Below the pieces are notes generated by a model. That model worked only from the letters and a program-made list of their open reading frames with translations, did not search any database and was not told the DNA's origin. This document shows, piece after piece, positions 38,793-59,758 of a DNA stretch of 64,000 nucleotides. The translations under genes were made by a program, and so were the position numbers. The stretch's first letter is position 1; each line of letters starts with the position of its first letter. Source of the DNA: Eledone cirrhosa (Eukaryota); NCBI GenBank assembly GCA_964016885.1, contig OZ024750.1, forward strand, positions 18,290,001 to 18,354,000. The letters run 5' to 3'.

Positions 38793-39705
38793 TAATTGTT
38801 TCTTATATAGGCGCAAGGCCAGCAATTTTGGCAGAGGGGAAAGTCAATTAAATCTACCCCAGTGCGTGACTGGTACTTTATTTTATCGACCCCTTAAGGA
38901 TGAAAGGCAAATTTAACCTTGGCGAGATTTGAACTCAGGTCGCAAAGGCCCGTAACCCTATGCTGCAAAGCATGGTGTCCGACCTTCTAATGATACTGCC
39001 AATCCACTGCCCTAATAATTGTTTCTACTTTTGGCACAAGGCCAGCAATTACCCAGTGCGTTACTGGTACTTTATTTTGTCAACCCCGTAATAATGATTT
39101 CTACTTTAGGCACAAGACCAACATTTTTGAAGAGGGGCAAGTCGATTAAATCGACCCCCAGTGTGTTACTGGTACTTTATTTTATCGACCCCGTAAGGAT
39201 GAAAGGCAAAGTTAACCTCGGCAGGATTGGAACTCAGACCGTAAAGGGGCGTAACTCTATGCTGCAAAACATGGTGTCCGACCCTCTACTGATACTGCCA
39301 ATCCACCGCCCTGATGATGAGAATGATAATGATGATGATGATGATGATGATGATAATTGTTTCTACTTTAGACACAAGGCCAACAATTATCTCAGTACAT
39401 TACTGGTACTTTATTTTATCTACCCCGAAAGGATGAAAGGCAAAGTTAATAATAATTGTTTCTACTTTAGACACAAGGCCAACAATTATCCCAGTACATT
39501 ACTGGTACTTTATTTTATCTACCCCGAAAGGATGAAAGGCAAAGTTAATAATAATTGTTTCTACTTTAGACACAAGGCCAACAATTATCTCAGTACATTA
39601 CTGGTACTTTATTTTATCGACCCCGAAAGGATGAAAGGCAAAGTTAACCTTGGCAGGATTAAAGAGCCATAACTCTATGCCGCTAAGCATGTTGTCTGAT
39701 GCTCT
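38793..39705 (-). mobile_element. Cluster of SINE family A copies, including a 99-bp tandem triplication (39355-39660)
   Basis: At least two full copies and several partial copies, all in the same orientation. Confidence 0.85.
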
Positions 39706-54566: not shown

Positions 54567-54904
54567 TCATTTCATTTCATTTTTACGTCTGTTTTTCCCT
54601 GCTTGCAAGGGTGGGACGGGAACTTATTCTGGCTTGATTTCTACAGCTGGATGCCCTTCCTAACACCAACCTCATTTACAATGAGTACTGGGTGCTTTTT
54701 TGCCGTGGCACCTCCTCAACCACTTTGCAGTGGAATGATAAGGACCCCAGTCCCTATCATCTCATTTCTACAGCTGAGTAAACTGGAGCAATGTGAAATA
54801 AAGTGCCTTGCTCAAGGAAACAACACATCACCCGGTCTGAGAATTGAACTCACAACCTTTCGATTGCAAAGCCAATGCTCTAACCACTAAGCCATGTGCC
54901 TCCA
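54567..54904 (-). mobile_element. SINE family B
   Basis: Near-identical to 7932-8263. Confidence 0.85.
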
Positions 54905-56106: not shown

Positions 56107-56449
56107 ATCATCATCATTTCATCATTTCATTTTACGTCCACTTTTCCCTGCTTGCAAGGGTGGGACGGGAACTGATGCTGGCTTGATTTCTACAGCTGGA
56201 TGCCCTTCCTAACACCAACCTCATTTACAGTGAGTGCTGGGTGCTTTTTTACCATGGCACCTCCACGTCCACTTTGCAGTGGAATGATAAGGACCCCAGT
56301 CCCTATCTCATTTCTACAGCTGAGTAAACTGGAGCAATGTGAAATAAAGTGTCTTGCTCAAGGAAACAACACATCGCCTGGTCTGAGAATTGAACTCACA
56401 ACCTTTCGATTGCAAGGCCAATGCTCTAACCACTAAGCCATGTGCCTCC
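56107..56449 (-). mobile_element. SINE family B, flanked by AT microsatellite
   Basis: Near-identical to 7932-8263. Confidence 0.85.
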
Positions 56450-57549: not shown

Positions 57550-57724
57550 GAATTTGATACATAAATGGCTTCTACAGGACTAGAACTGTTTCATTTAAAG
57601 TAAGTCATCAGGATGAAACAGTTCTAATCCTGTAGAAGACATTTCTGTATTAAATTTGTTGTATACACTCTACTAAAGTATTGAGTACCTTACTTACTGT
57701 GGTTACCCGCAATTGAACCCACGA

Positions 57725-57880: not shown

Positions 57881-58346
57881 CCCAACTACCAGCACCATCA
57901 TGTCTTTATTTGTTATAACCTTCTATAATATTATACTAAAAAAAAACATACACACAAAAAAAAGAAAAAGATTTTTTTAAATTTATATATATATATTTTT
58001 TTAATGAAATCAAAATTCAAACTCATATCATAATTAACTTTTTTTTTAAGTAAAATTAATGTACAAAATGATTTTTTAGAACATTTTTTTTTTATTTTTC
58101 AATTTTTCCTAATTAGCCCTTCATTTCATTTCATGAAAAAACACCTCAGTTTTTAACATTTTCGATTCATAAACTGATTCATAAAATGCTGAAGTAAAAT
58201 ATATTGGACTGCCATTCCCTATGTATAATATTTGTTTATATATATATCGAGGAAGTGTAACGTGGACTTACTCTAGCTTCACCTGGGTGAGCACTCCATC
58301 TTTAGGTTCACTTCTGTGTCGAGGTGTAGAGCTAGACAGAGTGTAT

Positions 58347-58522
58347 TATAATAAAATAAAACAAGGACGAGTGGTTACTCCATTACGTTTATTGGTTGGT
58401 GACGTGCGTTTCGCCACTGATCAGCTCAAGGTTCGATCTGTATCGATCTAGCCCGACTCTGTAATCTGTGGCTCGTCAGACCCTTTGTAATGAAGGAGTA
58501 ACCGCTCGTCCTTGTTTTATTT

Positions 58523-58529
<7 letters not shown>
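58347..58529 (-). mobile_element. Non-autonomous hairpin element carrying the hammerhead, with 35-bp inverted termini, next to (TA)n
   Basis: tataataaaataaaacaaggacgagtggttactcc (58347-58381) is the reverse complement of 58495-58529 with one mismatch. A (TA)n tract follows. Confidence 0.75.
58381..58492 (-). ncRNA. Type I hammerhead ribozyme with minimal stem III and extended stem II
   Basis: Minus strand: cattac-aaag-GGT CTGACGA gccac(agatta)...(tgatca)gtggc GAAAC gcac GTC ACC...gtaatg. All core nucleotides are present (CUGANGA at 58479-58473; GAAA and GUC within 58412-58401), and the G10.1-C11.1 pair and stems I and II can form. Confidence 0.8.
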
Positions 58530-58563
<34 letters not shown>

Positions 58564-58685
58564 CATATGTATATATGCATAATATACATATAAATATATA
58601 CATATATATATATATATATATATTCGCTTTAACAGTGGATACGTAAATGCATTCATGAGTTTAATATCGAATGATGATAATATAA

Positions 58686-59096
58686 CAATGGTTTCTTATA
58701 TAGGCACAAGGCCAGCAATTACCCAGTACATTACTGGTACTTCATTTTATTGACCCCCGTAAGGATGGAAGGCGGCACAGTTAACCTCGGCAGAATTTGA
58801 ACTCAGAATGGCAAGGGCCGTAACTATGCATCGAAGCATGGCGTCCGACCCTCTACCGATACTGCCAAATGATAATGGTTTCTTATATAGGAACAAGGCC
58901 AGCAATTTTGGGGGCGGGGAAAGTTGATTAAATCGACCCCAGTGCGTGACTGATACTTTATTTTATTTATCGACCCCGTAAGGATGAAAGGCAAAGTTAA
59001 CCTCGGCGGCATCTAAACTCAGATCATAAAGGGTCGTAACTCTATGCTGCAAAGCATGGCGTCCGACCCTCTACCAATTCTGCCAATCCACTGCCA
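58686..59096 (-). mobile_element. Two tandem SINE family A copies
   Basis: Two consecutive consensus matches (about 58686-58868 and 58875-59096). Confidence 0.8.
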
Positions 59097-59309
59097 ATAT
59101 TATTAAATTTGATTCATTTGCAAGCAAACAGTCTCATAACACCATATGTTGTAGATGCCTAGCATCATCTTTTTGTTCTAGCGATAGCATAGGAAAACTA
59201 ACAATTGTTTCAGGGTTACTGCCCCTTGTCAAGATTGTGTAAATTCCTCTCTTGATTGATTCACGTCTCCCATATCTTTACCAAAAATATATATACATAT
59301 TTATATATA

Positions 59310-59344
<35 letters not shown>

Positions 59345-59349
<5 letters not shown>

Positions 59350-59529
59350 AAAGGACGAAGTGTTAGGTCTTCATTACGTTTATTGAGGTGGGACGCGTGT
59401 TTCACGATTGATCGGCTCAAGGTTTGATCTTTATCAATCTGGTCCGAATCTGGAATCAAAAGCTTGTTGGACTTCTATTATGGTAATGACAGAATGCACC
59501 TTTTAGGGCTTTGAAAGTTACAATCCCTA

Positions 59530-59568: not shown

Positions 59569-59758
59569 ATAACGAGGAATCAGTGATGCATCAAAACCCA
59601 ATTTATTAAAATATTACATATGTTTCTCTGACGATCAGCTCAAGGCAGGATCTATTATAGATCGAACCAGACTCTGCATTCGCAAGGTCCTCAGGTATGT
59701 TTATCGTTTTCAAGGCATTTCTTCCAACGGACACATTTATTGCAACCTCACAACAACT
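59565..59758 (-). mobile_element. Third, more divergent hammerhead-bearing element
   Basis: Minus strand: CTGAGGA (59694-59688), then the related insert (gagtctggttcgatcta-taa-tagatc...ccttgagctgatc), then GAAACatatGTA (59626-59615). (TA)n on both sides; stems imperfect. Confidence 0.65.

Follow-up and report, generated by a model that had tools for sequence, protein, structure and literature searches.

The inverted-repeat feature near position 58,400 of the Eledone cirrhosa window (the whole 64,000-nucleotide stretch of contig OZ024750.1 analysed here) is most probably what a Hydra-clade Penelope-like element (PLE) left on inserting here, short, 5'-truncated and head to head, and the long-armed hammerhead it carries is likely weak, dimeric and dispensable. 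Taken by itself, the window locus is an unremarkable, decayed copy; the value of the finding lies in the long arm of the family and in the series of hammerhead cores that it offers naturally. The features that bear on this reading are listed below, with strand and basis, and published elements are compared throughout on the extracts of each cited source.

58237..58247, no strand: (TA)n target, left side (comparison of copies)
58248..58346, minus: PLE tail, 99 nt, a 3' extension on one arm only (copy comparison; public contigs)
58347..58490, minus: 5'-truncated sense pLTR end with hammerhead (match of 81% across 242 nt with each pLTR of the full-length copy in locus L093)
58398..58482, minus: type I hammerhead (core letters, pattern match, alignment of copies)
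58402..58409, minus: stem III/loop III (ACGCACGU in the window copy; family form ACGCGCGU)
58413..58472, minus: stem II arm, 60 nt, a long imperfect predicted hairpin (fold, copy alignment)
58487..58529, plus: inverted, tail-less, 5'-truncated pLTR end, 43 nt (copy comparison; joined at CATTAC microhomology)
58526..58623, no strand: (TA)n target, right side (repeat layout)
59331..59481, minus: separate, decayed, tail-less copy of an older subfamily, C (comparison of copies)

The window holds a single type I hammerhead motif

On the minus strand of the window copy, the stem I strand GGU (58482-58480) leads into the core CUGACGA (58479-58473), a stem II closed by GCCAC/GUGGC, GAAA (58412-58409), a stem III of two pairs (A-U and C-G) with the loop GCAC, GUC (58403-58401) and the stem I partner ACC, with the predicted cut falling between 58401 and 58400. 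The complete type I consensus is present (CUGANGA, GAAA, NUH and three helices, with stem I open), and a type I descriptor that permitted a stem II of up to 120 nt matched once on the two strands of the whole window, compared with no match in 100 dinucleotide-shuffled windows. The letters and the uniqueness of this match confirm the original prediction, which had assigned every catalytic core position and the cut; it was likewise right in naming a type I hammerhead of the PLE kind with a minimal stem III, in regarding the 60-nt stem II as atypical, and in noting the (TA)n setting. A comparison with Rfam hammerhead models, proposed at the same time, produced no match around the finding (E<=5) or in four loci (gathering score); Rfam also overlooked the short hammerheads of another locus, L095, so its failure here is a weak test.

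Other hammerheads occur in the same genome. Four head-to-tail units of 466 nt, more than 99.5% identical, lie at L095:8101-9964 (+), every unit bearing a short hammerhead whose stem II has 14 nt and whose stem III is the palindromic AACUAGUU, with one inverted copy near L095:7492 (-); this tandem array looks like a young non-LTR retrozyme. A short-armed hammerhead with a 17-nt stem II belongs to another repeat family, at L059:794 (+).

Two truncated copies meet head to head

The window sequence is a repeat in the 3.0-Gb genome, where a first look gave 3106 candidates, 40 of which were scored. Ten of these 40, the window copy included, match the 183-mer end to end. Summed contig depth, which is no copy number, was about 150,000-180,000 for the arm versus 5-8 for unique flank, and hints at copies on the order of 10^4 in the genome. 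We surveyed the anatomy of 60 loci, 56 of them distinct, and found head-to-head pairs in 28 of the distinct loci and no such pair in the other 28. One tailed and one tail-less arm made up 22 of the 28 pairs. The tail-less arm ends at TATA directly ahead of the tail, and arm length varies between 12 and 186 nt, counted ahead of the tail boundary. TATATA follows the end in 37 of 41 tail-less cases and in 39 of 45 tailed ones, and (TA)n, the insertion target expected of the Hydra clade, lies at 76 of the 86 ends.

At the window locus the repeat unit runs 99 nt past 58347, to about 58248, and there meets (TA)n. In public contigs, assembled from three runs on a single sample, unique flank and tail are joined without a difference across 58100-58307; in these same contigs, which look genomic, neither cover of 58475-58530 at 98% likeness nor splice-type joints were found. 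The inverted 43-nt arm (58487-58529) contains what had been described as the 35-bp terminal inverted repeat of a 183-bp element. The repeat exists, with 34 of 35 positions identical, but the boundaries of such an element do not hold, as the unit continues to about 58248. Similarly, the proposed extension of stem I through CAUUAC/GUAAUG is genuine and native to the pLTR, in which CATTAC is the distal stem I word, but what lies beyond it is a junction with a tail-less second copy, joined at that very word. An inverted, 5'-truncated layout with a one-sided tail is documented for Penelope-like elements (PMC8557442 Fig. 2), and the 22 pairs described above show it, with a tail of 99 nt versus 30-40 in that source; the tail of the anole element encompasses two sites at which reverse transcription starts (PMC11167929).

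Several further repeats lie nearby. In addition to the separate subfamily C copy, a still more decayed pLTR relative is found at about 59604-59704 (-), within 1.3 kb of the finding. A long near-perfect hairpin at 57553-57654, noticed only by way of sub-threshold Rfam matches, is probably another small repeat, since related sequence flanks other loci. An abundant SINE-like repeat occurs in partial tandems at 58680-59100 and 39353-39647 of the window, and two tRNA-like matches fall just under the Rfam cut-off at 54837-54894 and 56383-56440.

The parent is a candidate autonomous element of the Hydra clade

Upstream of the long-armed hammerhead and on its strand, longer copies carry a 3' UTR and, beyond this, a reading frame for a GIY-YIG protein. 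In 13 of 30 loci chosen by protein alone, endonuclease, 3' UTR and long-armed hammerhead follow one another on one strand, with the hammerhead 0.87-1.45 kb downstream of the GIY-YIG protein (1.5-kb flank searched). Locus L093 is arranged as pLTR-ORF-UTR-pLTR and its unit measures about 4.8 kb, while the ORF of L091, 858 aa long, starts about 40 nt past the tail; in full-length copies, the tail runs into the 5' UTR, and the ATG of the ORF follows about 40 nt later. Between them, L091 and L093 show the organization of an EN+ PLE, one ORF with a reverse transcriptase (RT) plus a GIY-YIG domain at its C-terminus between pLTR flanks. Judged by its sequence, the parent appears to be an autonomous Hydra-clade Penelope-like element.

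The element protein carries RILWR, DKT, YRDD, CNCKKRAEC (CxCX5C), YIG, CRLC and CRH, and no CxxC was found in it ahead of YIG. The Hydra clade is marked by DKT, RW[RK], a CxCX5C linker, and CxxC and CxH close to the C-terminus, with no CCHH (PMC8557442 section 11); the motifs of the protein agree with this definition, with RILWR here versus RMRWK in homologues, and by eye the protein follows the extract of the published Hydra alignment, so that the assignment is one by motifs and alignment rather than by a tree with reference elements. Our first guess, the Neptune clade, was discarded, as its CX2-5CxxC linker, DKG and CCHH are not found and the Hydra definition fits. The pLTR-to-pLTR length of L093 exceeds the under 3 kb usual in the Hydra clade, a tendency and no diagnostic. 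Pfam returned nothing for the 858-aa ORF at E<=1 and a GIY-YIG match for the endonuclease piece at E 0.013. There were 38 homologues, the best named one being a hypothetical protein of Argonauta hians, and the ORF is about 130 aa longer than most of them. A metagenome scan with the element ORF gave 67 pattern matches, none of which was confirmed.

Copies of this family have other Penelope-like families beside or inside them, represented by a 1039-aa open frame with an RT (L091:6883 onward, +) and by other Hydra-type endonucleases, in L095 and L097 (-) and at L059:3591-4400 (+).

The base of the long arm covaries as an RNA helix

Stem II measures 60 nt in all five subfamilies (A-E) of the family. 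In 50 hand-chosen copies drawn from the five subfamilies, the same sequences from which the structure was read, 46 cells had changed on both sides of a pair versus 17.7 +/- 2.9 after shuffling, a number that 0 of 500 shuffles reached, and 87% of cells were paired versus 20-37% when the structure was slid. The compensatory changes fall between subfamilies, at stem I pair 9:93 and at stem II pairs 21:76, 23:74 and 24:73, and the signal amounts to about four inherited changes, with few independent events. Covariation is silent on the arm's middle and tip, which are near-invariant. Because the changes within the arm lie at its base only, there is support for an RNA helix at the base, the remainder of the arm being a prediction. 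The test of covariation among copies that the original prediction had suggested is therefore borne out for stem I and the arm base in the five-subfamily set, but not in subfamilies A and B alone, where the score lies within the shuffles (63 of 500 as high). Run without constraints on two alignments, RNAalifold failed to find the hammerhead in both.

The arm of subfamily B carries a splice-donor-like GTA[AG]GA. An intron inside the arm was considered and gained no support for this family: the donor-like word (GT-A[AG]GA) occurs in subfamily B only, and the GT..AG span would be about 33 nt.

A family palindrome would favour pairing of two hammerheads

The idea that the whole element folds as one RNA stands as regards the strength of the 183-mer fold (-78.3 kcal/mol, z -11.5), but this strength is owed to the inverted repeat and not to a hammerhead fold: mean pairing probability is 0.79 for stem II, 0.01 for stem I and 0.0 for stem III, and imposing the hammerhead fold costs 8.6 kcal/mol. 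In each of six copies tried, the monomeric hammerhead fold lay 7.7-16.8 kcal/mol over the free ensemble.

The family form of stem III and its loop, ACGCGCGU, is a perfect palindrome, present in 56 of 77 subfamily A copies, that would let two hammerheads build an 8-bp stem III, and palindrome-mediated pairing of this kind has been proposed for PLE hammerheads (PMC4209133; PMC6765202). A hammerhead of the window type is likely to be dimer-dependent. The window copy differs from its subfamily by four G>A changes, one of which, at 58405, breaks the palindrome to give ACGCACGU, with a duplex energy of -3.1 kcal/mol versus -13.3 for the family form. Since this change weakens dimer pairing, the window copy is probably a dead, inactive relic.

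The hammerhead core changed while the family spread

A midpoint-rooted tree of 61 copies, from whose alignment the seven core columns had been removed, gives a ladder of subfamilies E, D, C, A and B, with direction inferred from divergence. The core is CUGAUGA in 12 of 24 copies of subfamily E and 12 of 19 of D; cores in C are mostly CCG- or decayed (CCGACGA in 9 of 37, CUGACGA in 5 of 37); A has CUGA[CU]GA in 67 of 77 copies, a set that includes pattern-selected ones; and B has CCGUCGA in 8 of 9. The hammerhead consensus core is thus missing from subfamily B (CCGUCGA) and from most of C (CCGACGA). The original prediction had staked itself on a genome-wide consensus retaining CUGANGA, GAAA and NUH; GAAA and GUC are indeed kept family-wide, but CUGANGA is changed in these two subfamilies.

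Subfamily B has a single origin (98/93 support), nested in A with a CUGUCGA copy as its sister, and on the tree U4C arose twice in the family and was once reversed. The sequences suggest a drift of the core from CUGAUGA to CCGACGA, then to CUGACGA (the window core) and to CCGUCGA. Exact matches genome-wide numbered 339 for CUGANGA, 1155 for CCGWNGA and 740 for GU-CCGUNGA, with none in the control for each; these patterns require the 60-nt arm and the palindrome, favour young copies and do not give copy numbers. A tight pattern for one subfamily, guessed from loose ends, had 0 matches. Divergence is lower in subfamily B (0.046, 12 copies) than in A (0.085, 23 copies), and the longest ORFs found belong to B, which is likely, by these sequence measures, to be the youngest branch; the age order is not clean, with C at 0.103 versus D at 0.073.

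In a viroid, the U4C variant shows much lower in vitro activity yet supports infection, and a change at A6 (A6C) gave low activity (extracts of PMC3088659). Neither the U4C+A6U double change nor long-armed Hydra-element hammerheads turned up in the literature searched, which covers subscription papers thinly.

A model for insertion and for the fate of the ribozyme

Published PLE work suggests how such an insertion might arise. The element's RT-endonuclease would nick AT-rich (TA-rich) DNA, and reverse transcription would start at two RNA sites 99 nt apart, so that one product would end with the tail and the other without it; both would stop early, and the two truncated products would be joined head to head at the CATTAC microhomology. 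The long arm may have been retained for a structural role in the RNA cycle, one at least partly independent of cleavage. The likely youngest branch has spread with two core changes, which suggests that cleavage is likely weak, or can be dispensed with, even as the arm is retained. Hammerhead mutants of the anole element left insertion in vitro unaffected, cleavage being unnecessary for it there (PMC11167929).

A stronger version of this account, which we put forward tentatively, is that the ribozyme has been repurposed, the arm having been kept through five successive subfamilies, unchanged in length and mended by compensatory changes, as a non-catalytic RNA element, for example as a possible binding site for the RT-endonuclease, while the core slipped twice; CCGUCGA, the latest branch to expand, would then have spread with a dead ribozyme as a natural knockout. 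If this is true, the CCGUCGA branch would show that PLEs can do without hammerhead cleavage in vivo.

We consider it rather unlikely that the ribozyme is instead functional and required in all subfamilies, with CCGACGA and CCGUCGA as slow variants rescued by the dimer, the arm or a protein. Retention of GAAA, GUC, the palindrome and stems I and II in the CCGUCGA branch speaks for it, as do the infection-competent U4C viroid variant noted above and the report that the anole PLE hammerhead cleaves only with its protein added (PMC11167929); the double origin of U4C with one reversal is also consistent with tolerance of that change. However, branch B is altered at both U4 and A6, the second a position where the A6C change left low activity, and the 3' half may be conserved for another reason or by recent descent.

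It is unlikely that the arm is conserved mainly as DNA, as an internal promoter of the pLTR whose hairpin shape is partly incidental. The words ATCGAT and TCAGT, which we take to resemble the DRE and Inr promoter motifs, occupy columns 44-49 and 71-75 in the arm (window 58413-58472, -), and the middle and tip are near-invariant without covariation. The pLTR of Penelope does have an internal promoter (PMC2377424). Against a promoter role, covariation marks the arm's base as an RNA helix; subfamilies C-E lack TCAGT, and E lacks ATCGAT as well.

The first proposal, of an independent and non-autonomous MITE-like element that spans 183 bp, bears a ribozyme and has 35-bp inverted termini, is very improbable: the inverted repeat and strong hairpin are real and a quarter of the scored copies match the 183-mer end to end, but those copies differ in arm length and in which arm is tailed, the unit continues to the tail on one side and to the PLE 3' UTR and ORF on the other, and the variable arms, in place of the fixed inverted termini and uniform length of a MITE, refute this view of what makes up the 3' end of an autonomous PLE of the Hydra clade. 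There is scarcely any chance that the feature is an animal non-LTR retrozyme, a tandem hammerhead repeat yielding circular RNA, even though a type I hammerhead sits inside a short non-coding repeat and retrozymes have been proposed as PLE derivatives (bioRxiv 10.64898/2026.07.22.740005), for tandem head-to-tail hammerhead units are absent at the window locus and from the sampled loci, where distinct loci were either head-to-head or unpaired, and copies are continuous with the autonomous element.

Comparison with known elements

The PLE family described here shares with the EN+ Hydra-clade elements of PMC8557442 a single ORF with RT and C-terminal GIY-YIG, the clade motifs, (TA)n targeting, a 3' hammerhead, an inverted 5'-truncated copy and a tail. 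It differs from them in several respects. The stem II domain measures 60 nt, versus about 10-24 nt in the published Hydra rows (PMC8557442 File S2); loop III of the Eledone family, a 4-nt GCGC within an 8-nt palindrome, departs from the Hydra set of that source, as do the off-consensus cores of two subfamilies; and the tail and unit (99 nt and about 4.8 kb) are longer than the 30-40 bp and under 3 kb given there. The hammerhead sequence also differs from that of Hydra-1_oBim, which indicates another family.

With the minimal and dimeric PLE hammerheads of PMC4209133 and PMC6765202 the family has in common the type I form, a short palindromic helix III, G10.1-C11.1, occurrence as singles or as close opposite-strand pairs, and the low activity to be expected. 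Helix II is 6-8 bp in the hammerheads given in PMC4209133, in contrast to the 60-nt arm; the core variant there is U3-A8, whereas here it is U4C/A6U; and the extra nucleotide after A9 in the PLE hammerheads of that source is absent here. The Anolis Poseidon element (PMC11167929) resembles ours in its two types of 3' end, AT-rich targets and pLTR hammerhead, but belongs to a different clade from the Hydra element, and its ORF starts in stem II, whereas the ORF here starts about 200 nt downstream of where the cut is predicted. Among PLE hammerheads a long arm does have a precedent, in the spike-moss PLE-X1_sMoe, with a stem II domain of about 53 nt (9 bp and a 35-nt loop; PMC8557442 File S2), although that element is from a plant, endonuclease-less, rDNA-targeted and unrelated in sequence to the Eledone family (PMC8557442).

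Implications

Nearly all PLEs carry hammerheads; their function there has been called unclear, and parasitism of the elements by hammerheads has been raised as a possibility (PMC8557442). The Eledone family offers a natural variant series on one scaffold (CUGAUGA, CCGACGA, CUGACGA, CUGUCGA and CCGUCGA), which permits cleavage rate to be compared with the genomic spread of each branch. Long-armed hammerheads, overlooked by Rfam here, can reach thousands in one animal genome. To the extent that the core changes of the likely youngest branch are a guide, cutting may be unneeded for the spread of the element.
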